Of a stretch of DNA of 23,528 bases, positions 407-17,083 are shown piece by piece; position 1 is the first letter of the stretch; every line of letters begins with the position of its first letter. A program made the translations under genes and the position numbers. The DNA is from Myxococcota bacterium (GTDB lineage Bacteria; Myxococcota_A; Bradymonadia; UBA4248; JAVFAO01). The notes under the pieces were generated by a model. It made no database searches. It was not told the origin of the DNA and saw nothing but the letters and a program-made list of their open reading frames with translations. The stretch covers positions 1 through 23,528 of the forward strand of contig JAVFAO010000065.1 in the NCBI GenBank assembly GCA_034002465.1. The letters are read 5' to 3'.

Positions 407-3208
407 CTAGTTGACCGAAAGCACCAGGTTGCCGTAGGCGGGGACTGTCGCGGGCAAGGTGCCGGTGTTGCCGTCTTGGTCGACGTAGCTGCCGCTCAGG
501 CCACAGCCGAGGGACATACCACTGCCGCTACGGTTGACGCCCACCAGGACGGTTTCCCCATCACGGGTCATTTTGTAGGACCAGCGATCGTTGGAGACCT
601 CACAGGTGCTTCGCGCACCGCCGCGAAGCGCCTTGTGTTGCTGTCGGAAACGGCCGAGCTTGGCGACCCAGTTCTTGGTTTCGGTCTCGTAGCCTTGGAG
701 GCCCGAGAAGCGCATCATGTGGCGGTTGTCGGGATCGGCCCCGCCAGGCTCGCAGATTTCGTCGCCTTGATAGACCAAGGGCGGCGGAGGGGAGGTGAGC
801 AAGATGGTGAAGGCTGCGCGCATTTTGCCTGCGTCATTGCCAGACTCGTTGAAGGCGCGGGTGACGTCGTGGTTGCCGATGAAGTAGGGCATCAACGCGC
901 CGTTCCAGACTTGCGTCTGATAGTAAGTGTCGCGTTCATCAGTGGTGGCCTTGACGCTGCTCAGGTTGGTGCCGCCGAGCACGTTGTCCTTGATGGCGTA
1001 GTAGAAGCCGAACTCGAACTGACCAGTGAGTTTGTCGTCGCCAACGTAGAGCCCCAGCATGTAGGTGCCGCCATCGAAGGTTTCACCGACAGTGTAGAAG
1101 GGCACGCCAGTGACCTCGAGATCTTGGCGAATGCGGCTGCGTGTGGTGGTGGTGAAGTCCATGACCATGTGCTTGACAGCGTCGAGGCGGAAGCCATCGA
1201 AGTCGAACTCCTGTGCCATCCAGATGGCGTGGTCGACGACGAGCTGCATGACCTGCTGGTTGCTGTAGTTGAGATCGGGCAGGTAGTTGGTGAACCAGCA
1301 GACGATGGGCTGATCCCAGCCGCAGATGTAGGGATTGCCGGGGCTATGGAACCAGTCGTCGTTGGGCCGATCATCCCAGAGTGGGGCAGTGGAGCCGTAG
1401 GCGTCATTGGCGTTGGTGATGCCGTAGACATGGTTGGCCACGAAATCGACCAGGATCCGGATGCCCTTGGAGTGTGCGAGCTGCACGAGCTCGTGCAGCT
1501 CGGCTTCGGTGCCGAAGTGGGGGTCGATGGGGGAGGTGATGCCAGGTAGTGGGTTGCGGTCGGTCCAACCCGTCGCGATGGGCCAGTAGGAGTGGTAGCC
1601 GGAGAAATAGCGGTTGTAATCGTTGAGCCCTCGGCCAGCGCCATCGGTGTTCAGAATAGGAGAGCTGATCCAGATGGCGTTGACGCCCATCTGTTCGAAG
1701 TAACCATCCTCGAGTTTGGCGATGATGCCTGCAAAGTCGCCACCTTGCCAGTTGGCTGCGCTATCGACGCCCGTCACCGGGGCGTTGTTGCTGCCCTTGC
1801 CGTCCAAGAAGCGGTCGGTCATGACCTGATACAGGAACATGTCTCTCCACTCGAACTTGCTGCTCTCCAGCCACATCGGCAGATAGAGATCATTACTGCG
1901 TTGACCAGCGCTGTCGACGACGCGGAAGAGGTAGGTGTATTTGCCGTTGGCAAGCCCAGTTGCAGAGATGTCGAAGATGCCGGTCTGGTCATCGTAGCTG
2001 CTATTGAGGTCGACGAGCTCACCGTTGAGGGTGATTCGGCTCTGGGCGAGGTCGATGGGGTTGTTGCCGGTGTAGCGCACCTGCAGTGAGTAGCCGGTGG
2101 CGCTGATGGTGGGCTGGGCCACCAGGGTCAGCAGTGGGCCGTCGCCGCTTCCTTGGCAGGTGTGGGTCGCGAGGTTGCAGGTTTGCCCCGAGCCACAGTC
2201 TGAGTTGGCGCCACAGCGACCAGCCGCCGGGCGACAGGCGTCACTGACGCACTGTTGCCAGTCTTCGCAGGTGACGCCGCCACACTGCGTGCTGCCGCCC
2301 TCGATCTGGGCCACCCCCACATTGGGCGTGCCTTTGATGACGCCGTCGAAACCGCAGTAGGTCCAGCTCTGCCCATCGTTCAGGCTGTAGCGGAAGAGGT
2401 AGTAGCGGGTGCCGCCTTGGTCCATCGAGAAGGGAGCGGAGAACTCGTTGTTGTTGCCGCAAGTGGTGCAAGCCGGGTTGAAGCTCGCATCGACCCACTG
2501 GATGTCCGTTGCGATCACTGGGTAGCCGACTGCGACGCCGCTTTGCCCAAGCTGCGCCTTCAGTCCTGCAGGTACGGCCGAGAAGGGCGTGTTGAAGGTG
2601 GGGTCGGAGTCGACATAGAGCTGGCTGTAGACCGTCACCGCTGGGTCACCTACCGAACCGGCGATCGAGAGCGGCCACTGAATGTTGCACCAGTGAATCT
2701 CGGGCGCCGTGTCCGCCACGCAGCTCGTCCCCTCGGGCATGAAGCCGAACGGACAGTTGCAGACTGGGTTGGTGTTCGCATCGACTGAGCACACGCCGCC
2801 ATTCCCGCAGTCCACCGCAGCGCAAGGATCGGAGACGCAGGTGTGAGCAACGCGATCGCAGACCTCTCCGCCGGTGCAATCGCTGTTCGTTTCACAGCGC
2901 CCCGGATTGAGATAGCACTGACCATCACGACACGACTCCCACTCCTCGCAGACCACGCCGGTACAGCTCGGCAGCTCCGTGTCCGTGTCGACGTCGGTAT
3001 CCTGATCGACCTGGTCCTGGTCCTGATCGGGCGTGTCCGAGATGGTGTCGGTTTCGCCGTAGGCGTTGTCGTTGATCAGATCGTCGAAATCATAGCCATC
3101 ATTAGGTAACTCGAGATCCTCGGGCGGCGTGACGACCGACTCGTCGTCACATCCCCAGAGGCCACCAAAAGCGAGCGCCACAAAAAAAAGCACTGTGAGC
3201 TTGCGCAT
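407..3208 (-). CDS. Secreted lipoprotein of the GH13 alpha-amylase family, with N-terminal acidic linker, two Cys-rich modules (one EGF-like) and a beta-sandwich domain.
   Basis: ORF 407..3289. I place the start at the ATG at 3208 (MRKLTVLFFVALAFGGLWGC, signal peptide plus lipobox), which has AGGAG 7 nt upstream. GH13 signatures: GYHSYW, GFRLDAVKHM (region II), GIRILVDFVANH. Cys-rich modules: CTGVVCEEWESC...CNCPFGFMPEGTSC and CGGVTCEDWQQC...ANSDCGSGQTC. TAG stop at 409-407. Confidence 0.85.
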   Translation of the reverse strand: MRKLTVLFFVALAFGGLWGCDDESVVTPPEDLELPNDGYDFDDLINDNAYGETDTISDTPDQDQDQVDQDTDVDTDTELPSCTGVVCEEWESCRDGQCYLNPGRCETNSDCTGGEVCDRVAHTCVSDPCAAVDCGNGGVCSVDANTNPVCNCPFGFMPEGTSCVADTAPEIHWCNIQWPLSIAGSVGDPAVTVYSQLYVDSDPTFNTPFSAVPAGLKAQLGQSGVAVGYPVIATDIQWVDASFNPACTTCGNNNEFSAPFSMDQGGTRYYLFRYSLNDGQSWTYCGFDGVIKGTPNVGVAQIEGGSTQCGGVTCEDWQQCVSDACRPAAGRCGANSDCGSGQTCNLATHTCQGSGDGPLLTLVAQPTISATGYSLQVRYTGNNPIDLAQSRITLNGELVDLNSSYDDQTGIFDISATGLANGKYTYLFRVVDSAGQRSNDLYLPMWLESSKFEWRDMFLYQVMTDRFLDGKGSNNAPVTGVDSAANWQGGDFAGIIAKLEDGYFEQMGVNAIWISSPILNTDGAGRGLNDYNRYFSGYHSYWPIATGWTDRNPLPGITSPIDPHFGTEAELHELVQLAHSKGIRILVDFVANHVYGITNANDAYGSTAPLWDDRPNDDWFHSPGNPYICGWDQPIVCWFTNYLPDLNYSNQQVMQLVVDHAIWMAQEFDFDGFRLDAVKHMVMDFTTTTRSRIRQDLEVTGVPFYTVGETFDGGTYMLGLYVGDDKLTGQFEFGFYYAIKDNVLGGTNLSSVKATTDERDTYYQTQVWNGALMPYFIGNHDVTRAFNESGNDAGKMRAAFTILLTSPPPPLVYQGDEICEPGGADPDNRHMMRFSGLQGYETETKNWVAKLGRFRQQHKALRGGARSTCEVSNDRWSYKMTRDGETVLVGVNRSGSGMSLGCGLSGSYVDQDGNTGTLPATVPAYGNLVLSVN

Positions 3209-3370
3209 CGACCGTCTCCTACATCCACCGTCCACCGCCGACAGTGGCTGGGAGCAATGTAGCAGAAACACCTCCATCTGCAAGACCATCCGAAGCTGTT
3301 TTCAAAGCTCTGAATAGTACTTGTGTTTTTCGATAGATCACGGAGGCAATCGGCGCGGCGACCGCGACGT

Positions 3371-4588
3371 TCAGCCCGATTCCGAGGAGCTCCGCGTCGT
3401 CTCGTGCACGCCGACACAGCAGTTTCGGCCGCGGCTCTTCGCCACATAGAGGGCACGATCTGCCAAGCTGAACAACGAACCGCGACCCAGCGACTGGGTG
3501 GTCGACACGGCCACCCCGACGCTGACCGTCACCTCGCCAGCGCCGAGGCCCCCCAGGCTCGCGAACTCCACCGATTCCCGCAGCTTCTCTGAGACGCGCA
3601 TGGCCTCGTCCTGGCTGACGCCGCCAGTGAGGATGACCACGAATTCCTCGCCGCCATAGCGAGCGATGAGGTCCTCTGCGCGCAGCTTGCTGCGCAGCAG
3701 GGTGGCGATGTCCTTGAGAACGGCGTCGCCACACTCATGCCCGAAGCGATCGTTGATCGCCTTGAAGTGGTCGATGTCCAAGACCAGCATCGCCAACGGC
3801 CGTCCTGTGCGGCTGGCCCAGTGCATCTCCTGCTCGAGCCGCTGCTCGTAATGACGGCGATTGAAAACCCCGGTCAGACCATCCACCGAGGCCATCTCCG
3901 CGAGTCGCATGTGGAGCTGGGCCTTCTCGATGGCGATGGCGGCGAGGTTGGCGAGGGTGGAGAGGGCGCGTTGGTCGTTGGCGTTGATGGGGCGCTGGTT
4001 GTAGGCGTTGTCGACCAGGACCACTCCCAACATGCTCTCCTGCAGCGCGATGGGGACCAGCGCGAAAGGAGAGAAACGCAGCCACTCACCGGATGTGGTT
4101 TGATAGGCAGCGACGTGATCATTGCTGACGAGCATCTCCCGCTTGGCAGCACAACGCGCCACCACATGGACCAAGGGGAGCTCGTGCTGGCTCCAATCCA
4201 GCTCTGGCGCTGCAGCTTCGATGTGGATCGAGACGTCCGAGAGCGCGCGCGTCAGGGCTTGGGCGCGCGGATCCTGCGCTGCACCATAGGAGTCGATCAA
4301 GCTCTGCAGATCGAGACCGATATCCTCGATGGCTTCCCAGATGCGGTGCGCCTCCTCTTCGTTGGCCGGCCCGATGGCTGAGGACGTGCGCAGCTCGCTG
4401 CGACGTTCACGGGTGAGGAAGAGCACCGCTCGGTTGAAATTCAGACCGTCGCCGTGAGTGATCCCCGACATGATGATGTGGAGGATCTGGTCCAGGTCCA
4501 GAGCAGCAAGCATACCGCGGGTAACCGTGAGCTGGAACTTCAGCTCCTTGAGGAGCACGCTATCTTGGGGTGCGAGGTGCTCATTCAT
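3371..4588 (-). CDS. GAF-domain diguanylate cyclase (GGDEF output, GGEEF active site with RxxD I-site).
   Basis: ORF 3371..4753. Start chosen at the ATG at 4588 (MNEHLAPQD), which overlaps the stop of the upstream PAS gene as ATGAATGA. RYGGEEF active site with RAED five residues upstream (I-site). The N-terminal ~250 aa are GAF-like. TGA stop at 3373-3371. Confidence 0.8.
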   Translation of the reverse strand: MNEHLAPQDSVLLKELKFQLTVTRGMLAALDLDQILHIIMSGITHGDGLNFNRAVLFLTRERRSELRTSSAIGPANEEEAHRIWEAIEDIGLDLQSLIDSYGAAQDPRAQALTRALSDVSIHIEAAAPELDWSQHELPLVHVVARCAAKREMLVSNDHVAAYQTTSGEWLRFSPFALVPIALQESMLGVVLVDNAYNQRPINANDQRALSTLANLAAIAIEKAQLHMRLAEMASVDGLTGVFNRRHYEQRLEQEMHWASRTGRPLAMLVLDIDHFKAINDRFGHECGDAVLKDIATLLRSKLRAEDLIARYGGEEFVVILTGGVSQDEAMRVSEKLRESVEFASLGGLGAGEVTVSVGVAVSTTQSLGRGSLFSLADRALYVAKSRGRNCCVGVHETTRSSSESG

Positions 4589-5780
4589 GCGAATCGTCCC
4601 GCGGTGGTGGCTTCGCCGGGTTCTCAGGCGGAGAAACACTTGCGTCCGAAGCATCAGCCCTTGCTCGAGCCAGTCGAGCTGCGGCTGGCGCGCCATGTCG
4701 TTGGGCCATGACCTGCTCACTGACCCGACGTGCACAGTCTGGGCAGATGCCATGCGAGAAATCTGCGTCGGAGTGCTCGCTGATGTAGACTTCGAGCTGC
4801 TTCCAATACCCTTGGTCGTCCCTGATCATTTTGCAATTCGCACAGATCGGGAGCAATCCGGTGAGCGTCTTCACCTGCGTCGCCGCAGCCCTCAGCTCTC
4901 GAATCAAGGCTTCTCGCTCCTCCTCAGCGCGTTTGCGTTCGCTCACATCGAGACCGATGGCCCAGCTACGCCAGCCGGGCACGCTGTGTGTGCGTGAGAC
5001 GATGGACCAGGCCACGATCCGCCTGCTCCCGTCCTTGCAGCTGATCTCTGTCTCCATGTCGATGACTTCCCCACGCATGGCATCCCAGAGCTCACTCAGC
5101 CGAATCCGATACTGGGTATCGGGATAGAGCAGCTCCAGGAGATCGGTGCGTCCCAGCATCTCTGAGGCGGCATAGCCGGTGACCCGCACGCACTCCTGGT
5201 TCCACAGCACGATGCGCCCCATTTCATCGACGGCATTGAGCAGCACTGGCATGTGCTGGACCACGAGCTGAAGACGCCTTTCACTACACAGCAGAGCAAG
5301 CTCGGCGGCTTTGCGCTCGGTGAAGTCTTCGACCAAGGCTTGAACATGGCTGACCTCGCCCTGCGCATCGAAGACTGGAGTCATATGGTAGCGAAAGTGA
5401 GCGGTCTTCCCCCATTTCGTGGTATACAGAGCATCACCAACGACCGCTCGACGCTGTGCGAAGCAAGTGCGAAAATGCTCACTGATCCCAGAGCGCTTGA
5501 GGGGCTCGAAGGTGAACATGTTGATTTGCTGTGTATCCTGGGCAGACGGCGAGCCGAGCAGACGCAGCACCATGGCATTGGTGCTCGTGATGCGGCCGTC
5601 GTTGGAGACCTCCAGCACCCCCAAGGGAGCACTCTCAACGAGCTCCCGATAGCGGGCAAGGTGCTGACGTTCGTCACGAAGCTGAGCTTGAGCCAAGGCG
5701 AGTTCGCCTTCGAGTCTGAGCACCCGCTCGGATTCATCTCCAGTGCGAGACTCTTCTGACTCGTGAGGGGTCTTGCTCAT
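4581..5780 (-). CDS. Tandem PAS/PAC sensor protein with a C-terminal Cys/His (CxxC...HGICPxC) zinc-ribbon-like module and no recognisable kinase or other output domain.
   Basis: ATG at 5780, TGA at 4583-4581. N-terminal coiled coil followed by two PAS-like segments. C-terminus LLPICANCKMIRDDQGYWKQLEVYISEHSDADFSHGICPDCARR. Translationally coupled to the downstream GGDEF gene. Confidence 0.8.
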   Translation of the reverse strand: MSKTPHESEESRTGDESERVLRLEGELALAQAQLRDERQHLARYRELVESAPLGVLEVSNDGRITSTNAMVLRLLGSPSAQDTQQINMFTFEPLKRSGISEHFRTCFAQRRAVVGDALYTTKWGKTAHFRYHMTPVFDAQGEVSHVQALVEDFTERKAAELALLCSERRLQLVVQHMPVLLNAVDEMGRIVLWNQECVRVTGYAASEMLGRTDLLELLYPDTQYRIRLSELWDAMRGEVIDMETEISCKDGSRRIVAWSIVSRTHSVPGWRSWAIGLDVSERKRAEEEREALIRELRAAATQVKTLTGLLPICANCKMIRDDQGYWKQLEVYISEHSDADFSHGICPDCARRVSEQVMAQRHGAPAAARLARARADASDASVSPPENPAKPPPRDDSHE

Positions 5781-5804
5781 TCGCCTGCCGCAGGTTCTCG
5801 TTGC

Positions 5805-5866
5805 CTGAGTTTTTGTCGATGGGGCGCTTGGCCCGGTTCCCCAAGTTTTTGTCGATGGGGCGGGTA
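5805..5866 (-). repeat. Family A short dispersed repeat, about 1.5 tandem units, in inverse orientation relative to the other copies.
   Basis: Reverse complement reads ...CCCATCGACAAAAACTTGGGGAACCGGGCCAAGCGCCCCATCGACAAAAACTC. This matches the 36-bp unit AAGTTGGGGGAACAGGCCAAGCGCCCAATGGACAAG found at 8751, 11449, 17084 and 20163. Confidence 0.7.
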
Positions 5867-6187
5867 CAACAGAGTCAGCGCAAAGCGCTCAGGACTGGAC
5901 GATACGACAAGTGCCGCTGCATCCCTTAGCCATTTCACCTCAACAGCACACCGCAGTTCGGCATTCCGAGCCGAAACCGCGGGCCCTGTGCCGCCCAAAC
6001 GCACGAGGCCGAGTCGCTTTCATGGGCCAAAGGATGGTCGATGAGGACAACAGGGCGCAAGCGCGCTCAGCAGCTACCGCTCGAGCACCTTCTTCGTAGC
6101 CCAGCCGCAGTCGCATTGCAAGCTTTGCCCGGATCGTGAACGCACGCTGCGGCCGCAACGCATGCACTTGGCGTCACTTCGAGCGCG

Positions 6188-6391
6188 TCAGCTCTCGCTA
6201 TCCTCGGGCTCGCTGCCGTGTTCTTCGCTGTCGAGCTCATCGAGCGCTGCACAGTGCCGATCGATGTGTTCCAAGGAGCATTGTAAGCTGATGCAAGCCT
6301 CTCGGAGGCGTTGCAGGCTGTCCTCGAGACCGAACTTCGCGGCCTGGAGCTGTGTCGCCAGCTCCACGAGCTTGGGATCGGAGAGGCTCAT
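6188..6391 (-). CDS. Small acidic hypothetical protein (67 aa), last gene of the mfd / SurA-like cluster.
   Basis: ATG at 6391 lies 3 nt after the TGA of the upstream PPIase gene (TGAaacATG). High GC3, acidic C-terminal tail (DELDSEEHGSEPEDSES), no recognisable domain. Confidence 0.45.
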   Translation of the reverse strand: MSLSDPKLVELATQLQAAKFGLEDSLQRLREACISLQCSLEHIDRHCAALDELDSEEHGSEPEDSES

Positions 6392-6394
6392 GTT

Positions 6395-7498
6395 TCAGCG
6401 GGCCTGCTGTGCTTCGGCGCTACGTTTCTGGGCCGTTTCGGCAATGTCCACATTGAGTCGTCGCTTGACGAAGCGACGCTTGGCCAGGTTCGAGATCCAG
6501 GTCTCAATCAGCTTCTGACCTTCGAGGTTGATCAGCTCGGCTCGGCACTCCTCCATGGTCTGTTGCCAGCTCTCGCTGCTGCTCTGAGAACGTCCATCGA
6601 CGCGGAGGATGTGGAACCCCTTCTCGGTCTCGATGATATCGCTGAGCTCGCCAACTTCCAACTCGAATACAGGGCCAAACTCGGCGCTCAGATCCGATCG
6701 CGTAAAACTGCCAAGTTGTCCGCGTCGTTTGGCCGACATGCCGGCAGAGAACTGCTCTGCAACGTCCTCGAAAGCCAGACCCTCCACGCGAACCATCTGA
6801 TAGAGTTGACGTGCCGCGGCATAGCGCACGGCGTCAACCGCCTCCCACCACGCCGGATAGAGCTTGGCCCAGGACGATTCCTGGCCGAGCTGAGCGTCCA
6901 GGGCTTCAGCGGTGACCACAATCTGGCTCAGCTCGAACTTCTCTGTACTCTGCCCCTCGGGCTGCTTCTCCCTCGCACAGGCTTCGACGTCGGGGGTCGA
7001 AACATCAACCTGTCCGCCAAGCTCGGTGCGCACCACGAACTGCGAGCGGAGCTCGTCCCGCAGGAAGCGCCGGAACGCATCCCAAGGAATGCCCTGCGCT
7101 CCCATCAGCGCCCTGTACTGCTGTTCAGTCTGACGGGTGCGTTGGTAGAGCATCTCGAGGCGCTGGTCGACCTCAGCATCGCCAACAGGAGCCTGCAGCT
7201 TGGCTGCCTCCGCGGACAAGAGACGGGTCTGGATCAGACGCTCGAGCAGCATCTCCAAAACCTGCGCTCGGTCGGCTGCGCCGTCCAGCGCTTCGACTCG
7301 CTGATTGGCGCTGGCGAGTCGAATACGGGCGTCGATGCGCAGGTCGTTGAACGTCACCACCTCGTCTTCGATGATGGCCACCACCCTATCCAGGGTTTCG
7401 GCACGAGCATCGGGGACACAGACGAGCAAGACGAAGAGCGAAAGCAAGCCGCTTGCTGTGGCAAGACCGGGAGTGCGGGGGCACGAAACTGCTGCCAT
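6395..7498 (-). CDS. SurA-family periplasmic chaperone / parvulin-type peptidyl-prolyl cis-trans isomerase.
   Basis: Signal peptide (LLSLFVLLVCVPDARA). SurA-N-like LDRVVAIIEDEVVTFNDL. Parvulin domain AEQFSAGMSAKRRGQLGSFTRSDLSAEFGPVFELEVGELSDIIETEKGFHILRV. ATG at 7498. Confidence 0.8.
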   Translation of the reverse strand: MAAVSCPRTPGLATASGLLSLFVLLVCVPDARAETLDRVVAIIEDEVVTFNDLRIDARIRLASANQRVEALDGAADRAQVLEMLLERLIQTRLLSAEAAKLQAPVGDAEVDQRLEMLYQRTRQTEQQYRALMGAQGIPWDAFRRFLRDELRSQFVVRTELGGQVDVSTPDVEACAREKQPEGQSTEKFELSQIVVTAEALDAQLGQESSWAKLYPAWWEAVDAVRYAAARQLYQMVRVEGLAFEDVAEQFSAGMSAKRRGQLGSFTRSDLSAEFGPVFELEVGELSDIIETEKGFHILRVDGRSQSSSESWQQTMEECRAELINLEGQKLIETWISNLAKRRFVKRRLNVDIAETAQKRSAEAQQAR

Positions 7499-7519
7499 GA
7501 AGAACTCGCAGAAGGACCG

Positions 7520-8491
7520 TCAAGGTCGGGTAGAGCCAGAGATGGCGTCAGAGAGCGAAGGCTCGAGAATCTCAACCCGAGCCGTCGCCATCACCTCGGC
7601 GACGTGAGCTTGCCAGGCGCGCGCTGCCGCGGCCTCGAGCGCGTCGTTCGCCAAGATCACACGAAGCTCGCTGGCTGGCAAGGGCTTGGCGGCGATTCGC
7701 TCGCGCACGTTCACCAGATAACAGCAGGACTGAGGCAGCGAAAGCAGCGCTCTCAGCCCAAGACCCGCCTCGGCAAAGAGGGCATCCGCCACCGCGTCAT
7801 CCAGCGCGCCCCGCGCCTCAGCGCGAGAAAATGGGCCCAAGCTCGCCTGGTTGGGCGACTCCTCGGTGTAGCTGCGCGCAAGCTCGAGGAAGAGCGCATC
7901 GGGGTTACCCGAGGGGTGCCACAAACTGGCGCCGCGCAGCATCGCAAAGGCCGTCATCAAGCGGCGCGCTCGCTGTGGGCTGCGGGTGAACAGAAGATCG
8001 ACGGTCAGTTGCTCGGGACTCTGCCAACGCTCTGGCTCGGCGCGCAGCGCCGCCTCGACGTCTTCGGGCGTCGGCGGCGCCACCTGTTGCGCTGTCTCTT
8101 GCCCGAGCTCCTGGCGGCGCTGCTCAATCATCTGCTCGCGGGTGTGGAGCTGTACCCACGCATCTTGCTGGAGACCCTGCTCGACCGCCATCTGTCTCAG
8201 CAACACGAAATTGATCATTTCACCGAAAATGCGCATGTAGCCCGTCTGCCCTTGCACCGCCTCGCGCAGGTAGCTGGGCATGGACGTGATGGTCGCCTCG
8301 AAGCGCGCGACGCTTATGCCCTCTCCATTGATTCGGCCGAGCACCCGCGACGCGCTCTGCTCGCGCTCGCGTTGCTCCACCTCTTCCTGTCGCTCGGCTT
8401 TCGAGCATCCCCAGGTCAAACTGAGCAAAAGCGGGACGAGCAGCGCGAGCTGCAAGGCCTTCCTGAGACTCCTCTTGATGACCCATGTCAT
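7520..8491 (-). CDS. SurA N-terminal-domain-like lipoprotein chaperone (PpiD/SurA_N family).
   Basis: ORF 7520..8530. I prefer the ATG at 8491 (MTWVIKRSLRKALQLALLVPLLLSLTWGC, lipobox), which has GGAG 9 nt upstream. SurA_N-like segment RINGEGISVARFEATI...NFVLLRQMAVEQGL. Confidence 0.7.
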   Translation of the reverse strand: MTWVIKRSLRKALQLALLVPLLLSLTWGCSKAERQEEVEQREREQSASRVLGRINGEGISVARFEATITSMPSYLREAVQGQTGYMRIFGEMINFVLLRQMAVEQGLQQDAWVQLHTREQMIEQRRQELGQETAQQVAPPTPEDVEAALRAEPERWQSPEQLTVDLLFTRSPQRARRLMTAFAMLRGASLWHPSGNPDALFLELARSYTEESPNQASLGPFSRAEARGALDDAVADALFAEAGLGLRALLSLPQSCCYLVNVRERIAAKPLPASELRVILANDALEAAAARAWQAHVAEVMATARVEILEPSLSDAISGSTRP

Positions 8492-8585
8492 GACACGAGC
8501 TCCAGCGTTCGTCGGCTGGTGGTTTTGCACACGCCCCGGAGTCCTACACTCCCAAAGGAGCGCAACGGCGTCTCAGTGGCGTCGG

Positions 8586-8635
8586 CAACAATCCGATTTC
8601 AAAGGGATTCCAACGGGCATCGCCCGAGGCGTGGC
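8586..8635 (+). repeat. Family C repeat copy C1 (CAACAAxxxGAxxTCAAAGGGATTCCAA-GGGC-loop-GCCC).
   Basis: caacaatccgatttcaaagggattccaacgggcatcgcccgaggcgtgg. Near-identical core at 13703 and 17003. GGGCatcGCCC forms a hairpin. Confidence 0.6.
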
Positions 8636-8685
8636 AGAGCTCATCAGTAGCATTCGTTCGCTCTCGGGCACCAAGCTCTCGACAG

Positions 8686-8749
8686 CCGCAATTCCGACGG
8701 AATGTCAAGAAGATGCGTGCCCTTCGCGCACTTTCGATCGGATTCAAGT
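8686..8749 (+). repeat. Family B hairpin repeat copy B1.
   Basis: ctctcgacagccgcaattccgacggaatgtcaagaagatgcgtgcccttcgcgcactttcgatcggattcaag. A second copy at 22586 is about 80% identical. Internal ATTCC/GGAAT stem and outer CTCTCGAC/GTCAAGAG imperfect stem. Confidence 0.65.
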
Positions 8750-8750
8750 A

Positions 8751-8787
8751 GGGAAAACAGGCCAAGCGCCCAATGGACAAGAAGTTG
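8751..8787 (+). repeat. Family A repeat copy A2 (single unit), immediately 3' of B1 and 18 nt downstream of the mfd stop.
   Basis: gggaaaacaggccaagcgcccaatggacaagaagttg. Confidence 0.7.
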
Positions 8788-8805
8788 CTGAACCCCTCCA
8801 TCCAT

Positions 8806-11800
8806 CTAGCGGCAGCATGAGGCGAGCTCTCGCAAGTAGGCCTTGCAGGTAGCGACCAAAGCCGCCGCTTCGCTCGGGCGCAGGTAGCGCACGAGGCGCA
8901 GATCCTGACGGAGAACATAGCGTTTTGGCTCGGCGAGCACCAGGGATACCACCCGATTCGGGTCGAGACCGCTGTTCTCGCCGATGTTGATGGTGATCGC
9001 GGTGTTGTTGGCGTCCACCCCCATGACGCCGAGTGCGCGTAGCAAGAGCTTGACCTCGAAAAGCTCACGCAGCCCCAGCAGCTCTCGGGGTGCCGCGCCG
9101 AAGCGGTCGACGATCTCTCCGAAGATACGATAGAGCTCGTCGATATCTGCTGCCGCCGAGAGACGTTTGTACAGCATCAGCCGGAGCTGCACGTCCGGGA
9201 CATAGTCGTCGGGCAGATAGGCCTCGATGGGGAGGTTCACCTCGGGTTCGACCCGCGACTCCAGCGGCTTGCCAGAGAGCTCGGCGATGGCCTCATCCAG
9301 CAACTCCGTATACATGTCCAGGCCCACGGTCATGATGCTGCCGTGCTGCTCGGCACCGAGCAGGTTGCCTGCCCCTCGCAGCTCCAAATCGAGCTGGGCT
9401 ATCTGAACGCCGCTACCGAGCTCGGTGAAGCGGGTGATGGCATCGAGACGGTCGTGCGCGGCCTCGCTGAGCTTCTCATCTGCAGGGATCATCAAGTAAC
9501 AATGCGCCCTCTGGCTCGAACGCCCCACACGCCCACGCAACTGGTACAACTGCGCCAGACCCAGAGTGTCCGCGCGGCTGACAATCAGGCAATTGGCGTT
9601 GGGGATGTCCAGGCCACTCTCGATGATCGTCGTGCACACCAGTACATCCGTTTCGCCACGGATGAAATCGAACATCACGTTCTCGAGCTTGCGCTCGTCC
9701 ATCTGCCCATGGGCCACAGCGATCCGGGCCTTCGGACAGAGGCTGGCCAGCTGCGTGGCACACTGCTCGATGGTCTGGACACGGTTGTGCAGATAGAACA
9801 CCTGGCCACCGCGAGCGAGCTCCTGCTCGATGGCGTCGCGGATGGCGCCGTCGGTTTGTCTCGCCAGGTAGGTGCGCACCGCCAGACGATCGTCGGGCGG
9901 CGTCGCGATCACCGACAGATCACGAAGCCCCATCATGCTCATCTGCAGGGTGCGCGGGATCGGCGTTGCCGTCATTGACAGCACATCCAGTGGCGTATTC
10001 CCATCAATCTGCTGGGCGAGTACTTTGATCTTCTCCTTATGGGCCACCCCAAAGCGATGCTCCTCATCGATGATGAGCAGCCCCAGCGACCGGAACTTCA
10101 GATCGGACGAGAGCAGTCGGTGGGTTCCAATGAGCACGTCCACGCTGCCCTGGCTCACTCCCTGCAGAATGGCCTTGGTTTCTGCGGCTTTGCGGAAGCG
10201 GCTCAGCGACTCGACGCGCACCGGGTAGTTGGCGAAGCGGTTGCGGAAGGTGGCAGCGTGCTGCTCCGCGAGGATCGTGGTGGGGACCAGCACCACGACC
10301 TGCTTTCCGTCAAGCACCGCGCGGAAGGCGGCGCGTACCGCCACCTCGGTCTTGCCAAAGCCAACATCGCCGCAGACCAAGCGGTCCATCGGCCGCGCTT
10401 TGGCCATGTCCTCGAGCACCGCGTCGATGGCGGCGGCCTGATCGACCGTTTCGTTGAACGGGAAGGAGCTTTCGAAGTCTCGGAAATACTCGTCTCTGGT
10501 GGAGAAGGCAAAGCCTGGACGAGCCGCCCGCTCGGCATAGAGTGAGAGCAGGTCGATGGCCAGGGCCTTGACGCTCTCGCGGACCTTGGCTTTGCTCCGC
10601 TCCCAGGCGGTGCTGCCCAGGCGATCGATGCGCGTGGGCTGCTCTCCGCCTGCGAACTTCTGTACGCTTCCCAGCCGGTGAACCGGGACATAGAGCTTGT
10701 CCTCGTCGGCGTAGCGCAGCAACAGAAAGTCGCCACGGATGCCACCCACCTCGAGGTTGAAGAGCCCTTCGTAGCGGCCAATGCCGTGCTCGCCGTGCAC
10801 CAGGAAATCCCCCGGTCGCAGCTCGCGGAACGAGAGCAGGGCGCGCTCGGTACTCGCGCTCTTGGCGCTGCTCTGTCGCGTTTTGCGCGCGCCAAAGAGC
10901 TCTTGGTCGCTGATGATGGCCAGGCCCAGCGCAGGAAAGCGTTCTCCGCTCGTGAGTTTGGCGCGGAGGAGCTGCACCTCCTTGGCAGGAGGCTGGCTCG
11001 GCGCGATGAGGCGTGCGGGAAGCCCGCTCTGCATGGCCGCGGGGATGCCGTGTAGGGGTAGCTGCTCGAGCAGGCGCTCGGCGCGTCCGCTGCTGCTGCA
11101 GGCAATCGCGATGGTCCCGTAGACCTCTGCGAATTGCTTCAGCTTCTCGGCGAAGGCAGGAATCACCTTGTCTGGGCCGAGGCGCTGCCTGAGCGCGCTC
11201 AGATCATGGTTCCCGAGGCTGTCGAAGCGTAGCGGGGTGTCGCTCTCGAGCCTGCTGCACAGCCGTGGTAGAGGGCCAATGGCATCCGCCCACTGGGCGG
11301 GGCGCAGATAGAGCTCCTCTGGTGGGAAGGCGAGCAGCTCCGAGGCGAGCCGCTGTTGGTATTGCTCCTGGGCGCGGTCGAAGAGCTGCGTTTGGGCGTG
11401 CTGGATGGCGTCCTCGTCGACGAGCATCAGCAGACGTCCATCCATGAACTTGGGGGAACAGGCCAAGCGCCCAATCGACAAAAACTCGAGCGGGGTTTCC
11501 AGGTGCTCGAAGAAGGCGGGCATCAGCGCTTCGATGCCGAGGAAATGGCGGCCGTGGCCAAGCTCGGTGAGCACTTTGCGCAGGGATTTGGTGGGGAAGT
11601 CGAGTTGGTCACCAAGCTCTCGCAGCCGATTCCTTGCGACGAGCAGCGATTGCTCGTCGAGGATTTCCTCTCGAACAGGGCAAATGTAGAGGCCGCTCAG
11701 CGTGCTGGTCCCGCGCTGGGTGTCAGGGTCGAAGTGGCGTAAGGTCTCAACCTCGTCGCCATCGAGTTCGATGCGCACAGGCTGGGCATAGACGGGGCTG

Positions 11801-12528
11801 AAGACGTCGACGACACCCCCTCGTACGGCAAAAGTGCCAGGATCTTCAACGGATTGCACAGGGGCGTAGCCGCAGCTCAAGAGCCGCGTGCGCAGCTTCG
11901 TCAGGTCCACCTCGTCACCTGTGCCCAAGATCAGGCTGAGCGCGTCCAGGCTCTGCCGCGGTGGGCAGCGTCGGCACAGCGCTTCGACCGAGGTGATGAG
12001 CAGCGGTGGCGCTTCTCCGAGGTGCAGGAGAAAGAGTGCGGCGAGGCGCGCAGCGACCGTCCGTCGGTTTGGTGCGATGCCGCTGTAGGGGCTCTGATCC
12101 ACCGACGGCAGGAGCATGCAGTTCGCTTCACCCGCGAAGAAGCTGCACTGCTCGAGAAGCTCTTCTGCCTTGCTGCTGCTCGAGGTGACGAGAACCACCG
12201 AGCGCTGCCGCGAGCTGACCAGCTCGCTGGCGAGCAGCGCGCAGCTCAGTGGGCTCGCTCGCATGACCTGGCGCGGTGGTGCAAGGCCGTCCCAGCCATC
12301 GACCAGCGCGGCCCAATCGAAGCACGAGGCGGCCGCAGCACGCTCCAGCTCGCTGCCTACTGACTCGGGCTGCGCGGTGTGGACCTGCTCTTGGGGTTCC
12401 TCTTCGAAGCCTACGAGCAGGCCGTCTTCGTCGACCTCGAGCTCGCTCTGCTCGTCTTCGATTTCGTCAAAGAATGCAGGGTCTTCGATGTGTTGGACTG
12501 GTTCTGGGGCAGGGTGACGTACGTTCAT
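8806..12528 (-). CDS. mfd: Transcription-repair coupling factor Mfd.
   Basis: 1240-aa ORF. Mfd hallmarks: CGDVGFGKTEVAVRAAF (Walker A), LLIIDEEHRFGV (DEEH box), TATPIPRTL, QLRGRVGRS, TRG-like VGLDMYTELL, and UvrB-homology N-terminal modules. ATG at 12528 but no clear SD. The first ~70-88 aa are acidic and unlike the E. coli Mfd N-terminus as I recall it, so the true start may be internal (e.g. the ATG at 12264). Confidence 0.9.
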   Translation of the reverse strand: MNVRHPAPEPVQHIEDPAFFDEIEDEQSELEVDEDGLLVGFEEEPQEQVHTAQPESVGSELERAAAASCFDWAALVDGWDGLAPPRQVMRASPLSCALLASELVSSRQRSVVLVTSSSSKAEELLEQCSFFAGEANCMLLPSVDQSPYSGIAPNRRTVAARLAALFLLHLGEAPPLLITSVEALCRRCPPRQSLDALSLILGTGDEVDLTKLRTRLLSCGYAPVQSVEDPGTFAVRGGVVDVFSPVYAQPVRIELDGDEVETLRHFDPDTQRGTSTLSGLYICPVREEILDEQSLLVARNRLRELGDQLDFPTKSLRKVLTELGHGRHFLGIEALMPAFFEHLETPLEFLSIGRLACSPKFMDGRLLMLVDEDAIQHAQTQLFDRAQEQYQQRLASELLAFPPEELYLRPAQWADAIGPLPRLCSRLESDTPLRFDSLGNHDLSALRQRLGPDKVIPAFAEKLKQFAEVYGTIAIACSSSGRAERLLEQLPLHGIPAAMQSGLPARLIAPSQPPAKEVQLLRAKLTSGERFPALGLAIISDQELFGARKTRQSSAKSASTERALLSFRELRPGDFLVHGEHGIGRYEGLFNLEVGGIRGDFLLLRYADEDKLYVPVHRLGSVQKFAGGEQPTRIDRLGSTAWERSKAKVRESVKALAIDLLSLYAERAARPGFAFSTRDEYFRDFESSFPFNETVDQAAAIDAVLEDMAKARPMDRLVCGDVGFGKTEVAVRAAFRAVLDGKQVVVLVPTTILAEQHAATFRNRFANYPVRVESLSRFRKAAETKAILQGVSQGSVDVLIGTHRLLSSDLKFRSLGLLIIDEEHRFGVAHKEKIKVLAQQIDGNTPLDVLSMTATPIPRTLQMSMMGLRDLSVIATPPDDRLAVRTYLARQTDGAIRDAIEQELARGGQVFYLHNRVQTIEQCATQLASLCPKARIAVAHGQMDERKLENVMFDFIRGETDVLVCTTIIESGLDIPNANCLIVSRADTLGLAQLYQLRGRVGRSSQRAHCYLMIPADEKLSEAAHDRLDAITRFTELGSGVQIAQLDLELRGAGNLLGAEQHGSIMTVGLDMYTELLDEAIAELSGKPLESRVEPEVNLPIEAYLPDDYVPDVQLRLMLYKRLSAAADIDELYRIFGEIVDRFGAAPRELLGLRELFEVKLLLRALGVMGVDANNTAITINIGENSGLDPNRVVSLVLAEPKRYVLRQDLRLVRYLRPSEAAALVATCKAYLRELASCCR
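11449..11486 (+). repeat. Family A repeat unit embedded in frame inside the mfd coding sequence.
   Basis: cttgggggaacaggccaagcgcccaatcgacaaaaact. On the mfd (minus) strand it encodes ...PLEFLSIGRLACSPK... The same peptide motif LSIGR(L/S)ACSP is what the tandem array at 20163-20312 encodes on its minus strand. Confidence 0.7.
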
Positions 12529-12572: not shown

Positions 12573-13640
12573 TCAGCTGTCATGGGGGTTGGGAGTGCGG
12601 GGATAATGGTCCCTGGGGAGCTCGCCGACGACTGGGACGTCGGCGATGGCGAGGAAGCGCTCGATCTGGCGCTCGATGTAGAAGGCTTGTTCTGGTTCGC
12701 TGAGGCCTCTGGCGATGGCACGTTCCTTCTCGCCCAGGACTGCGACCACCGAGTAGGTGCGCAGGAAGGTAGAGGCTTCTCGTCCATCGGTCCTGTCTTC
12801 TCGGCAGAAGATCTGTTCGATTCGCGAGGCTTCCACGGGGCGCACCGGGAACCATTTGATGGGGCCGTGCTCGATGCTGAGGCTGCGGTTGTCGACGCGG
12901 ACGGTGGTCTCGTTCTGGGCGAACGCGACGAGGACGTAGACGCCGACTCCAAGGACAGCGAAGAGACCAGCGACGGTGACCAGGGTCGATTGGAAGATGG
13001 CGGCCAGCAGGCTAATGAAGATGATGCCGATGAGCAGAAAGAGCACGAGCGCCGGCCCGCGTCGTCGGGTATAGGCCCAGGGGTATTGCAGGTAGAGCGC
13101 TCCACCTTGTATCCAGAACTTCATGTTTTCTGGGAGCTCTGCGGCACCCACGGCGATCAGCGGACCGCTGCTCATGGGAGGGAGGTCCGGGCTCAAGCCC
13201 CAGTTCTCTCGTCCGAGCAGCTGCATGGCGCCGCGGACGAAGGCGAGGACAGTGGTGAAGTCGCTCTCGGCCATGTTGGGGGCGACGAGCTCGAGCTGGG
13301 GCAGGGCGTCGAGGGGGCCCAAATTGCGGGTGCGGGTTTTCAGAGCGAGTCGTTGCCACTGACCGTCTTGGCGTTGGCGCAGCTCGAGAAAGAGGACGCT
13401 GGGGTCTCGACCGCGGCTGAGCACCGCTGAGAAGCTTTGGCTGGTGTCGATGCTGCGTCTTTCGCCCCGGCGCGAGATGGTGACCGCTTCGGAGCTGCAC
13501 TCGAAGATGGCGCCGGGTAGGTCGATGGGGGCGGTGAAGTTGCCGTTGAGCCTGGGCTCAGGGAGAAAGGCCAGGGCCTCCTCCGGAGAGACAAGCGGGC
13601 TGAAGGCTGGTTGGCCAGGGTTGGAATACACGCTGCTCAT
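12573..13640 (-). CDS. Hypothetical membrane protein (two central transmembrane helices).
   Basis: 355-aa ORF with very high GC3. TM segments LVLFLLIGIIFISLLAAIF and LVTVAGLFAVLGVGVYVLVAF. The opposite-strand ORF 12540..13430 is G/D/E-rich antisense noise. Stop lies 45 nt upstream of the mfd start. Confidence 0.6.
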   Translation of the reverse strand: MSSVYSNPGQPAFSPLVSPEEALAFLPEPRLNGNFTAPIDLPGAIFECSSEAVTISRRGERRSIDTSQSFSAVLSRGRDPSVLFLELRQRQDGQWQRLALKTRTRNLGPLDALPQLELVAPNMAESDFTTVLAFVRGAMQLLGRENWGLSPDLPPMSSGPLIAVGAAELPENMKFWIQGGALYLQYPWAYTRRRGPALVLFLLIGIIFISLLAAIFQSTLVTVAGLFAVLGVGVYVLVAFAQNETTVRVDNRSLSIEHGPIKWFPVRPVEASRIEQIFCREDRTDGREASTFLRTYSVVAVLGEKERAIARGLSEPEQAFYIERQIERFLAIADVPVVGELPRDHYPRTPNPHDS

Positions 13641-13702
13641 GGGTCAAGGCTTGGACTGCGAAAGTGGAGGAGCTGGCTGTGTTCGCCCATCGATGCGAAG
13701 AA

Positions 13703-13742
13703 AAAAAGAGGGATTCCAGAGGGCTAGCCCTCCGATGGGTGT
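13703..13742 (+). repeat. Family C repeat copy C2.
   Basis: aaaaagagggattccagagggctagccctccgatgggtg. GGGCTAGCCC is a perfect palindrome. Compare C1 and C3. Confidence 0.55.
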
Positions 13743-13870
13743 GGGGAAGCGGCGCGAAGCGCAAGCAAAGGACTGCTCGAGCCGTGGGTGGAGACCGAGC
13801 AAAGAAGCGCGGCTCAAGGCCAACGCCGGAGTCAGCTTGTCAGATTTGTGGGCACCTGTCGACCAGATGC

Positions 13871-15190
13871 TTAGTCGATGGCGGTGCAGGTACCGAGGGA
13901 TGGTGCCAGCCCCTGCTCACACTCTCCGACGCTGCCACCGACGCAAGCATCGTTTCCACTACAATCTGCTTCGCTCCAACAGGAGCCTTCCAGAAGCAGG
14001 TTCAAGCAGTGGCCGCCCTCACAGCGATGGCTGCTACAATCTGAGTGTGTCTCGCAACACTCGCACGTCCCGGCTGCAGCAAGCGGCACCCAGGCATCAG
14101 AGCAGGACTCAGCTTCCAATCGCCGGCAAAGCTTCATTTCGGAGGCACAGTCTCTTTGTGTCCAGCATTGCCCTGGACTGAGCAGTGGAAGTCGTTCGAG
14201 ATCACGACAGACACTGTCCAGACACACCAATGGAGCATCGCAGTCTTCCTGCACACTGCAGCAGTGTGTGCAGTAGCCTGGCCGCTCGGGCCACGGTTCA
14301 CTTGGGAACAGGGTCTGCGAGCAGAAGTCGTCGTTGAGCGGGCCGCAGTGGAGATCCTGGAAGCAGCCCTCGTCAGGGCTGGCATATCCAGTCTGACAGA
14401 AGTCGCCCACGCAGACCTCGCCCAAGCCAGGGCAGTGCCCCAGAAGGCCGCACTTCTCGGCAATGCGCGGCTTGCAGATTCCATCGATGGTCAACGATGC
14501 GCCTTCGCAGACCTCGTTGAGCAAACAGTGACTGTTCAAGCGGCAGCCCGTCTCGGGCTTCTCGAGGCAGAGCGAATCCCCATCAACGAACACGCAATCA
14601 CTCTCGGCACAGTTCTCACACTGAGGCGGCGTACAGGTTCCAGCTTTGGGAACACAAGAGACGCTGGTGCAAGCGCAGGACTCGACGCCCACGCAGACTG
14701 GCGTCTCTTCCTCGCAGTCAGCGTGTGCCCAACACTGGGGTGATTGCACAGGGGGCACACAGAGAGTCCCGTTGGTGTCCAACGACTCGAGGCATTGCTT
14801 GTTGCCCTTGGTGCACGCAGAACAGGGCTTGCAGTTCGAGTTCGGGATGAGGTCTTGATCGATGGCGTCGGTGGTGGTGTCTGGGACCTCTGTCCCGTCG
14901 TTGCCATCCACGCCGTCATAGCTGTCCGTATCGACCACCTCGGGCAGGTCCTGAGGGAGGGTGTCCACGAGCTCGGGGAGCAGCTCTGCTGCGTCTTCGT
15001 CGAGATCCTTGGGTGGCAGAACGAGGTCAACGTTGGGGACGTCGACTGGAGTGTCCGCCGTTTCCGCCAGCAAATCCTCGAGCTGCAGAGGATACTGGCT
15101 GGGGTCTTCGAAAGGCATGCAGCTCATCGGGAACAGGCCGACGAGCGCCAGAAGACTGACCCGGAAGACCCGGAAGAAAGAAGGGCTCAT
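13871..15190 (-). CDS. Secreted cysteine-rich repeat protein (acidic N-terminal linker followed by about 10 Cys-rich modules).
   Basis: ORF 13871..15271. I prefer the ATG at 15190 (MSPSFFRVFRVSLLALVGLFPMSC, signal peptide) with GGAG 7 nt upstream. Repeated xx(D/S)DC...C...C modules (AHADCEEETPVC, RDCASEMKLC, HSDCSSHRCEGGHC, EADCSGNDAC) resemble the Cys-rich modules of the amylase at 407..3208. Confidence 0.7.
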   Translation of the reverse strand: MSPSFFRVFRVSLLALVGLFPMSCMPFEDPSQYPLQLEDLLAETADTPVDVPNVDLVLPPKDLDEDAAELLPELVDTLPQDLPEVVDTDSYDGVDGNDGTEVPDTTTDAIDQDLIPNSNCKPCSACTKGNKQCLESLDTNGTLCVPPVQSPQCWAHADCEEETPVCVGVESCACTSVSCVPKAGTCTPPQCENCAESDCVFVDGDSLCLEKPETGCRLNSHCLLNEVCEGASLTIDGICKPRIAEKCGLLGHCPGLGEVCVGDFCQTGYASPDEGCFQDLHCGPLNDDFCSQTLFPSEPWPERPGYCTHCCSVQEDCDAPLVCLDSVCRDLERLPLLSPGQCWTQRDCASEMKLCRRLEAESCSDAWVPLAAAGTCECCETHSDCSSHRCEGGHCLNLLLEGSCWSEADCSGNDACVGGSVGECEQGLAPSLGTCTAID

Positions 15191-15285
15191 GTTTCGCTCC
15201 AAGACGAACGGCCCGGTCCATGTACCTCGACGAGCGCAGGGTGTCGGTGGGCCCAAAGCCCACTCTAGCAAACCGGCAGTCCCGG

Positions 15286-16768: not shown

Positions 16769-16967
16769 GGCCTTCGCTCAGTCTCGCAAGCCGACCCTGC
16801 GCCTGCAGATCCTCGCGATTACTCAGAGGGCTTTCGATTCCTTGGCGTTCGCGCTTGCAAGCAGAATGCGCCTGCTCTATGAATGATGGCGCGTGATCGA
16901 ATGCCTCGTCGAGGGGATGCAGCAGCCACCTGCGTGTCCGCTCCCTCGACGCGCACGAGCCAAGGGG

Positions 16968-17042: not shown

Positions 17043-17083
17043 GGGGCAGAGCCCCGCAATCGTATTCACATTCAACAGGTCAT

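Follow-up and report, generated by a model that had tools for sequence, protein, structure and literature searches.

Short repeat modules form a mosaic in the intergenic DNA of a Myxococcota metagenome-assembled genome

Results

The spacer between mfd and a SurA-like gene holds three repeat modules

The stretch analyzed here, referred to as the window, is a whole contig of 23,528 nt (JAVFAO010000065.1) from a Myxococcota metagenome-assembled genome (MAG) with a genome GC content of 62%. The sequence of the source organism that was covered comprised this 23.5-kb contig and three short contigs. Between mfd and the adjacent gene for a SurA-like peptidyl-prolyl isomerase (PPIase), a cluster at 8582-8792 consists of one copy each of three short repeat modules: C (8582-8640), B (8644-8745), and A (8746-8792). 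The initial annotation had reported three families clustered at this junction; the cluster is present, and all three families recur in the window far above chance. The presence of the B copy was likewise confirmed, but its start had been set at 8686, about 40 nt downstream of the true start at approximately 8644, the end being at approximately 8745. The earlier list of copies lacked an A copy within mfd (11443-11478) and a reversed relative of B, called D here (20000-20093). The modules of the window are as follows.

5800-5872, minus strand: A, about two units, with 20 nt between their end and the downstream PAS gene start (5780)
8582-8640, plus strand: C1, with the leader TCGGCAACAA, core AAAGGGATTCCA (8601-8612), hairpin CGGGC-ATC-GCCCG, then GGCAGAGC
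8644-8745, plus strand: B1, an imperfect palindrome of about 100 nt forming one long hairpin
8746-8792, plus strand: A, one unit and the 9-10-nt start of the next (CAAGTAGGGAAAACAGGCCAAGCGCCCAATGGA, then CAAGAAGTTG), antisense to the mfd-surA transcript
11443-11478, plus strand: A unit within the mfd coding sequence, in frame, antisense
13702-13760, plus strand: C3, with the core AGAGGGATTCCA and hairpin GAGGGC-TA-GCCCTC, after a probable decayed A unit (z 3.1)
16965-17000, plus strand: A, degenerate, abutting C2 (z 7.2; 0/1000 shuffles reach the score)
17001-17062, plus strand: C2, with the core and the hairpins AAGGGC-GAA-GCCCTT and GCGGGGC...GCCCCGC (fold z -2.3)
17073-17118, plus strand: A, single, about 55 nt upstream of the start codon of a major vault protein (MVP) homologue, found by core match and alignment
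20000-20093, minus strand: D, a relative of B, with the ends AAGTGAGCG ... CGAGAGCGAACGAAT as in B; its terminus holds the MVP stop (20003-20005)
20155-20317, plus strand: A tandem array, 4.2 units and a terminal partial unit, found by core matches and Tandem Repeats Finder (TRF)
22555-22650, plus strand: B2, solitary; its minus-strand terminus AAGTGA holds the stop of the open reading frame (ORF) 22639-23517

By these coordinates, the repeats make up approximately 24% of the intergenic DNA of the contig.

A long plus-strand ORF at 6311-8650 gave no family match and is an antisense shadow of the PPIase genes; hence, the cluster sits in the spacer of co-directional minus-strand genes. Judged from the sequence, ATG 8491 and not GTG 8530 is the most likely start of the first SurA-like gene. 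A GGAG motif lies 8 nt upstream of this ATG and a lipoprotein-type signal peptide follows it, and the alignment with the homologue on the contig L007 of a relative (described below) begins 19 residues later than the GTG 8530 (GVG...) start would imply. The spacer accordingly measures 275-314 nt, by choice of the start.

Scanning of the spacer for sigma-70-like promoters and intrinsic terminators revealed nothing convincing, the sole site of the terminator scan being a 5-bp stem within the A unit (8758-8772). The readings of the cluster as a tRNA, tmRNA, CRISPR, or known RNA were rejected by scans, and that of the spacer as a single large structured RNA was rejected by the fold of the whole spacer (z -0.9 and -0.6 on the two strands, not significant). 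The Rfam search of the window gave no match for the repeats. Its only match at E ≤1 was Ysr141, with 25 bits against a gathering score of 196, at 10183-10442 (plus strand), antisense in mfd; this is a chance match. The 8492-8805 spacer with A, B, and C matched none of the phage and plasmid records, and the A core was absent from the IMG/VR viral contigs.

Direct repeats of module A are spread across about two dozen contigs

Module A is a 36-nt direct repeat with the consensus CAAGAAGTTGGGGGAACAGGCCAAGCGCCCAATSGA, a strict 36-bp period, and a highly conserved 22-nt core. Its 25-nt core sequence AGGCCAAGCGCCCAATSGACAAGAA was found eight times in the window at ≤3 mismatches (5810-5834 on the minus strand; 8759; 11460; 17090; and four times within 20178-20310) and 0 times in 100 shuffles. 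A second, partial unit lies at 5836-5862. For the array, TRF gave a 36-nt period with 4.2 copies and 94% identity at 20161-20312. Isolated copies consist of one unit and the first 9-10 nt of the next, so that similar 9-mers (CAAsAAsTT) flank them. Relative to the local gene orientation, A is sense at 5800, 17073, and 20155 and on two further contigs (L005 and L006, see below) and antisense at 8746 and in mfd.

A single unit had no stable fold (-3.9 kcal/mol, z +2.2), and pairing was seen just between neighbouring units, via TTGGG/CCCAA and GGCC (dimer z -3.1); thus, A is a direct repeat and not a palindrome. The sole inverted repeat of the unit is internal and 5 nt long (TTGGG...CCCAA); terminal ones are absent.

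The A unit has zero stop codons in all six frames, so its six-frame translation could be used as a protein query. The query retrieved at least 27 predicted 'hypothetical proteins' (P0121-P0148), nearly all from the same MAG and encoded on about two dozen contigs (RBU37_03350 to RBU37_27995, together with the JGI twin annotation of the same MAG). The arrays in these proteins hold 1 to at least 9 units each and at least 100 units in total; the genome-wide counts are lower bounds because they come from accidental ORF calls. Arrays were translated in five of the six frames and the frame often switched within one array, which indicates that the A arrays are non-coding DNA translated by gene callers by accident. 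Some array ORFs were joined to the N-termini of real genes (P0121/P0148), and in P0138 the array is joined to the C-terminus of a real protein, at a contig end. As A is open in all six frames, such 'hypothetical proteins' are annotation artefacts. In the copy at 17073, a TAG interrupts the frame that would give LGEQAKRP.

When JGI metagenome contigs were scanned for the exact pattern, two A-containing contigs from one sample (Ga0116164) were added. On L005, two A units lie downstream of a helicase-like ORF at a distance of 108 nt from each other and have one open frame in common; on L006 (1-2926), the 5' end of a ParB-like ORF carries one A unit, and an IS21-family istA comes next (the genes on both contigs were identified by reading). 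This istA, 1 kb from the A copy, was the sole transposase gene seen near any copy. The ENA contig L010 contains D, two A units, approximately 180 nt of other sequence, and then an inverted decayed A. When genome contigs were scanned with the A core, the matches listed were just chance matches, lying within Thauera and Streptomyces coding sequences and those of an unrelated Myxococcales MAG, and thus uninformative for the source genome.

A 72-nt segment between the A units of L005 (158-229, minus-strand reading; …GAGACTCGCTGCGAAGGCAGCCCGAAGGGTGCGTGCCATGGATGGCAGGCAACAACTTG) recurs as protein in P0124 (…TRCEGSPQGACQGWHATTWGN…); because of this recurrence it is probably a fifth repeat module, preceding A arrays. 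A shorter motif, CCATGGATGGC, also precedes the A array of the window, at 20109-20119.

Modules B and D are palindromes placed at gene 3' ends

Module B is approximately 95 nt long, with the end sequences AAGTGAGCG... and ...CGAACGAAT. The two copies, 8644-8733 and 22555-22644, are 79% identical over 90 nt (score 106 versus 17.7 +/- 3.4 for shuffles). D aligned over its full length with the reverse complement of B1 (score 45 versus 17.9 +/- 2.9 for shuffles); its interior differs from that of B and is still palindromic, giving a hairpin of -52.9 kcal/mol (z -3.6). [quoted passage not shown] The terminal inverted repeats of B1 are imperfect: GCATTCGTTCGC ... TCGATCGGATTC, where GCATTCGTTCGC and the reverse complement of the latter, GAATCCGATCGA, are identical at 8/12 positions.

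The minus strand of B1, which is the transcribed one, folds to -35.1 kcal/mol versus -27.5 kcal/mol for the other strand, since several mismatches turn into G-U pairs. This asymmetry is one anecdotal sign that hints at relevance at the RNA level. B1, B2, and D each directly follow the 3' end of a gene and have one common orientation with respect to that gene, and in two of the three B-type copies the stop codon falls inside the AAGTGA terminus (MVP, 20003-20005; ORF 22639-23517, at 22639-22641). On L010, the AAGTGA terminus is again preceded by an unrelated sequence. Since the D terminus holds the MVP stop, D may have reshaped the C-terminal end of the MVP homologue. No U-tract follows the B and D hairpins and none of them was reported by the terminator scan. 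The fold z-scores were weak for B1 and B2 as well as for C1 and C3.

Module C combines an invariant core with GC hairpins

Module C consists of a leader, the invariant core (A/G)AGGGATTCCA, and a GC hairpin. The 12-mer core AAAGGGATTCCA occurred three times at ≤1 mismatch (8601, 13707, and 17006) versus 0.09 expected, and the pairwise alignments of the copies gave z-scores of 11.5 (C1 versus C2), 6.3, and 3.9. In the hairpin, the inner stem GGGC/GCCC is constant and the base varies but stays complementary (C-G in C1, AA-TT in C2, and GA-TC in C3). As there are three copies, these complementary changes are no more than suggestive. Relative to transcription, two loci have C in antisense and one has it in sense orientation; terminal inverted repeats are not visible in C.

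A chimeric six-frame protein query for B and C returned nothing at E ≤10, a result that is uninformative rather than negative, as both modules carry stop codons and their copies diverge.

A single A unit lies in frame within mfd

The segment 11443-11478 is exactly one 36-nt A unit, matching the consensus at 32/36 positions. Read antisense and in frame, it supplies residues 351-362 of Mfd (SIGRLACSPKFM). At this spot the Mfd alignment has a gap of 8-13 residues (11 in most) in 39/39 homologues; in E. coli Mfd the same gap falls between residues 274 and 275. The mfd ORF is intact and all Mfd domains were detected with Pfam.

In the AlphaFold model of the N-terminal 620 residues of Mfd (mean predicted local distance difference test score, pLDDT, 85.7), the inserted segment is predicted as coil between a helix (346-351) and a strand (366-369). 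The pLDDT drops below 50 at residues 354-359 and, elsewhere in the confidently folded part, solely in the linker 551-565. Judged from the model and by analogy, the mfd copy bears what would be the signature of a selfish DNA insertion tolerated in a surface loop.

The modules occur alone and in varying order

Three orders of modules were seen in the window: C-B-A at 8582, A'-C-A at 16965, and D-A(n) at 20000. Immediately before C2 lies a decayed A (z 7.2), as is probable for C3 (z 3.1), and C often follows an A unit at its 3' end. In front of C1, the reading of an A remnant was rejected (z -0.2), as were a decayed C upstream and a decayed A downstream of B2, whose alignments (z 0.2-0.8) were at the shuffle level. 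In the ORF-derived data, peptides in P0135 and P0142 represent A(n) running into a C-like core, P0139 has the reverse-complement (inverted C-A) arrangement, and P0136 consists of a reversed A array and then a reversed C-type core, that is, the forward order C-A(n). D followed by A units was found at 20000 in the window and in the proteins P0126, P0140, and P0144; as P0144 was called on L010 and comes from the same locus as P0140, the D-A proteins stand for two further loci. B-type modules join A in either orientation.

Solitary modules exist as well: the A units in mfd and on L006, and B2. C stands alone as C1, without an A remnant beside it, and as C3, with a weak one. A fixed end-tandem-end architecture of the BOX type was not found, as the partners vary (B1-A, reversed D-A(n), A-C, C-A) and modules occur alone. 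The modules form a mosaic with preferred neighbourships and not one fixed element.

A relative keeps the gene order and lacks the repeats

The Mfd protein of the window is MDX9720645.1 (100% identity; locus tags RBU37_*), and the next Mfd relatives are just 54% identical to it. One of them, in GCA_964454015.1 (L007; further assemblies L008 and L009), keeps the order mfd, SurA-like, SurA-like. On L007 the next gene begins 4 nt after mfd. No A core was present on L007; when its 23.7 kb were surveyed for repeats, just coding low-complexity repeats were seen and no dispersed non-coding family. The 4-nt gap and the lack of repeats suggest, on this sequence comparison, that the 275-314-nt spacer of the window is the derived state, and the mfd-SurA junction was probably once a tight operon junction.

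Genes and other features of the contig

The genes of the window, identified from Pfam and NCBIfam scans where a family is named, are as follows.

407-3289, minus strand: alpha-amylase
3371-4753, minus strand: GAF-GGDEF protein
4581-5780, minus strand: PAS protein
6395-7498, minus strand: SurA-like PPIase
7520-8530, minus strand: SurA-like PPIase, next to mfd
8806-12528, minus strand: mfd, with its stop at 8806
12573-13640, minus strand: hypothetical gene
13871-15271, minus strand: hypothetical gene
15345-16142, minus strand: Hsp33
16277-16768, plus strand: TPR protein
17171-20005, plus strand: MVP homologue
20572-21300, plus strand: V4R/XylR_N protein
21653-22642, minus strand: SDR ORF, in which homology begins at residue 67
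22639-23517, minus strand: hypothetical gene

The MVP homologue has 944 residues and is similar to the eukaryotic protein (Pfam MVP_shoulder at 1e-18, Vault_3, Vault_4). The PAS ORF (4581-5780) and the GAF-GGDEF ORF (3371-4753) overlap by 173 nt in different frames, and a frameshift (a sequencing error or a pseudogene) may have split one PAS-GAF-GGDEF diguanylate cyclase gene. The segment 5873-6394, approximately 520 nt between the A units and the stop of the SurA-like gene, contains no convincing gene and gave no Pfam, NCBIfam, or Rfam match. Two further structures are unrelated to A, B, and C: a perfect 12-13-bp stem at 22506-22545, between B2 and the SDR start (fold z -3.3), and a perfect 20-nt palindrome at 20405-20424 (GGCGAGCGGCCGCTCGCC), upstream of the V4R gene.

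Discussion

A probable mosaic of non-autonomous repeats

We consider it likely that the modules are lineage-specific, non-autonomous selfish repeats of the MITE/REP/BOX kind gathered in tolerated spots, and that the mfd-SurA cluster is a mosaic of three independent modules. This view draws on the dispersal of A over about two dozen contigs, the clean in-frame unit in mfd, the varied module orders, and the relative without repeats. In this scenario, an enzyme with its gene elsewhere in the genome would move the modules in trans. The 9-nt direct repeats that bound the units (CAAGAAGTT) could then mediate slippage or unequal recombination, by which A arrays would lengthen or shorten. Modules might pile up since intergenic spots tolerate insertions, or they might insert preferentially beside each other. 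Elements targeting each other have been reported for BOX, RUP, and SPRITE (PMC3049150; PMC10969869).

Several observations weigh against this explanation. The mobility of the modules is read from their distribution only, and no transposase or RAYT-type gene is present on this contig. The 9-mers on either side of single A units belong to the repeat period and differ from each other (6/9 identical in mfd), so they do not demonstrate a target-site duplication. Only three B-type and three C copies are visible. The presumed ancestral 4-nt gap is taken from one distant outgroup, and two other Mfd relatives have no SurA-like gene after mfd, synteny being absent there. The non-significant fold of the whole spacer belongs among these points, too.

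The initial annotation had taken the repeats for actively spreading non-autonomous elements or for a modular structured-RNA family, and had reasoned that families always found together in a fixed order would be one longer element. On the contig and in the ORF-derived data, the modules occur alone and their orders and orientations vary, which speaks against a fixed order. A non-autonomous set agrees with the spread of A and the mfd insert, but with copies 65-95% identical, the notion of active spread was not borne out. The structured-RNA idea is not supported for A, which is unfolded, lies in both orientations, and enters coding sequence; for B and C, their hairpins leave room for a possible secondary, co-opted role.

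Such co-option of B, D, and C as RNA structures would not conflict with a selfish mosaic. The B and C hairpins, now part of the mfd-surA transcript, could act as 3'-end, stability, or attenuation structures, in the manner of REP, BOX, and SPRITE, and these embedded hairpins may uncouple or tune the expression of the downstream PPIase genes.

Alternative explanations

It is unlikely, in our assessment, that the modules are primarily functional cis-acting RNA structures (terminators, stabilizers, or attenuators) or small RNAs that were duplicated as useful sequences and are not mobile. The hairpins of B, D (z -3.6), and C2 (z -2.3) are stable, but those of B1, B2, C1, and C3 have weak z-scores, and the hairpins lack a U-tract, escaped the terminator scan, and match nothing in Rfam. 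All three B-type copies lie at gene 3' ends, two of them holding the stop codon, and B1 gains stability on the transcribed strand through G-U pairs; the stem base of C likewise varies and yet stays complementary. Nevertheless, C occurs in both orientations relative to transcription, the single A unit is unfolded and found inside a coding sequence, and the relative does without such a spacer.

A composite mobile element of approximately 210 nt, C-B-A, built like BOX (boxA, repeated boxB, boxC) and decayed or truncated at the other loci, seems rather improbable. No terminal inverted repeats span the whole, B2 is solitary with no significant C or A remnant (z <1), and the A units in mfd and on L006 are solitary as well. 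The arrangement A'-C-(short B-like stub)-A at 16965-17118 does resemble A?-C-B-A at 8570-8792, and at several loci A abuts C or B-type modules abut A arrays. However, D joins A in the orientation opposite to that of B1, and in P0139 C and A are inverted relative to the A array.

Returning to independent selfish modules, a more specific variant is that A is a self-targeting mobile unit, inserted beside its own 9-nt end motif CAAGAAGTT by an enzyme of unknown type (e.g., HUH/RAYT-like or otherwise site-specific). We regard this as a long shot. If it were true, each insertion would make a new target, slippage would not be needed for head-to-tail arrays to form, and in-frame entry of single units into ORFs could occur, a mode of proliferation distinct from that of classical MITEs and REPs.

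Arrays of A as binding sites for a DNA-binding protein (nucleoid-associated, regulatory, or partition-type), with the 36-bp spacing as the key feature, appear very unlikely. The strict period and the conserved 22-nt core would suit this role, as would the location of arrays often just upstream of gene starts (5800-5872; P0121/P0148; L006), one copy lying at the start of a ParB-like gene. It is hard to reconcile with 1 to at least 9 copies, frame-shifting unit lengths, both orientations, and one unit in mfd; moreover, the flanking genes have no common functional theme and no candidate binding protein was identified.

There is hardly any prospect that A encodes a real repeated peptide (LGEQAKRPMDKK repeated) in small repeat proteins or N-terminal extensions. 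All frames are open, ORF 20048-20317 holds four perfect repeats, and the L005 units, 108 nt apart, share a frame, but five of the six frames are used with switches within arrays, in-frame stops occur in the copies at 8746 and 17073, the mfd unit is read antisense, and there is no Pfam or NCBIfam match. Finally, a metagenome assembly artefact can be practically dismissed: arrays run off the end of some contigs (P0138, P0128) and their lengths may thus be collapsed, but the same units appear in independent assemblies (JGI Ga0116164 L005 and L006; ENA L010) and the mfd insert is in frame with continuous coding sequence on either side.

Likeness to known interspersed repeats

The modules show no sequence similarity to the named repeat families, and membership is not claimed. 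MITEs are small (<~300-500 bp) and non-coding, with terminal inverted repeats, a target-site duplication, and a related autonomous insertion sequence (IS). The size and copy-number features agree, as A, B/D, and C are 36-100 nt long, match no protein family, and occur in multiple dispersed copies; the hallmarks, namely terminal inverted repeats, target-site duplication, and a parent IS, are only partly visible. The E. coli REP/BIME elements are mosaics of short motifs in operon spacers, lineage-specific and present in hundreds of copies, whose hairpins affect mRNA stability or termination; the REPs are 20-40-nt imperfect palindromes in alternating orientation. The mosaics are said to have been described by Gilson, Bachellier and colleagues, and the RAYT transposases reportedly by Nunvar in 2010. 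The spacer mosaic described here resembles a BIME in that A is mixed with other motifs in spacers. Unlike a REP, A is not palindromic (z +2.2) and its units run head to tail rather than alternating.

Taken alone, module A comes closest to MIRU and STAR, with the same unit in variable tandem arrays (1 to at least 9) on about two dozen contigs. Both kinds are dispersed direct repeats of intergenic DNA whose tandem arrays differ in copy number across many loci and in many cases lie within operons. The mycobacterial MIRUs, reportedly described by Supply et al. in 1997, are said to have units of 46-101 bp that carry small ORFs coupled to the flanking genes, in phase and overlapping with them. Unlike a MIRU, A has no consistent frame (it switches in arrays, and stops flank several copies) and also occurs inside coding sequence. 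The staphylococcal STAR consists of short motifs separated by spacers (PMC3532100), unlike the spacer-less 36-mer A. The 36-nt repeat and the regular spacing in arrays also recall CRISPR. Here, however, the units abut without spacers, no cas genes are present on the contig, no CRISPR-DR matched in Rfam, and there are dozens of small arrays; a CRISPR array was rejected on the spacer-less 36-nt period.

For the unit in mfd, the Rickettsia palindromic elements (RPEs) offer a parallel. As summarized in the MITE review, they are palindromic, approximately 100-150 bp long, and in many cases intragenic, lying in frame in housekeeping genes with a peptide that fits the protein fold (Ogata et al. 2000, via PMC10969869). 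Intragenic ERIC/RU elements are likewise in-frame selfish repeats (PMC2759123). The mfd insert is like an RPE in its in-frame entry into a conserved gene, with ORF and domains kept, and in its predicted loop. It is unlike one in that A has 36 nt, is not palindromic, and has one intragenic copy documented in the readable sequence.

Overall, the pneumococcal BOX/RUP/SPRITE set is the best analogue, with a modular element, a tandem central module, clustered families, and a terminator-like family at 3' ends. These are small (<200 bp), non-coding, hairpin-forming repeats confined to one lineage (Croucher et al. 2011, PMC3049150; MITE review PMC10969869); BOX is modular with a central boxB in variable tandem array, and SPRITE is enriched at gene 3' ends (PMC3049150; PMC10969869). 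B and D resemble SPRITE in their position at gene 3' ends. Unlike in BOX, the module found in tandem here (A) can also stand without end-modules on its flanks, modules vary in order and orientation, and the elements are GC-rich. By analogy, the repeat system would open no new category and resembles the pneumococcal BOX/RUP/SPRITE set or the E. coli BIMEs.

Significance

Good descriptions of small interspersed repeats exist for a few model bacteria, and hardly any for Myxococcota or for lineages that are uncultured. In this MAG, at least four modules make up a dense system that fills about a quarter of the contig's intergenic DNA. Its useful specifics are the exact one-unit, in-frame insertion in mfd, a 36-mer that is open in all six frames and builds arrays at dozens of loci, and a palindromic module supplying stop codons. 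In practical terms, the repeats yield spurious 'hypothetical proteins' in MAG annotation and, as some contigs end inside arrays, they break assemblies; they could serve as strain-typing loci. Biologically, the system would be tractable for the questions of how these repeats spread and whether hairpins inserted at an operon junction alter expression.

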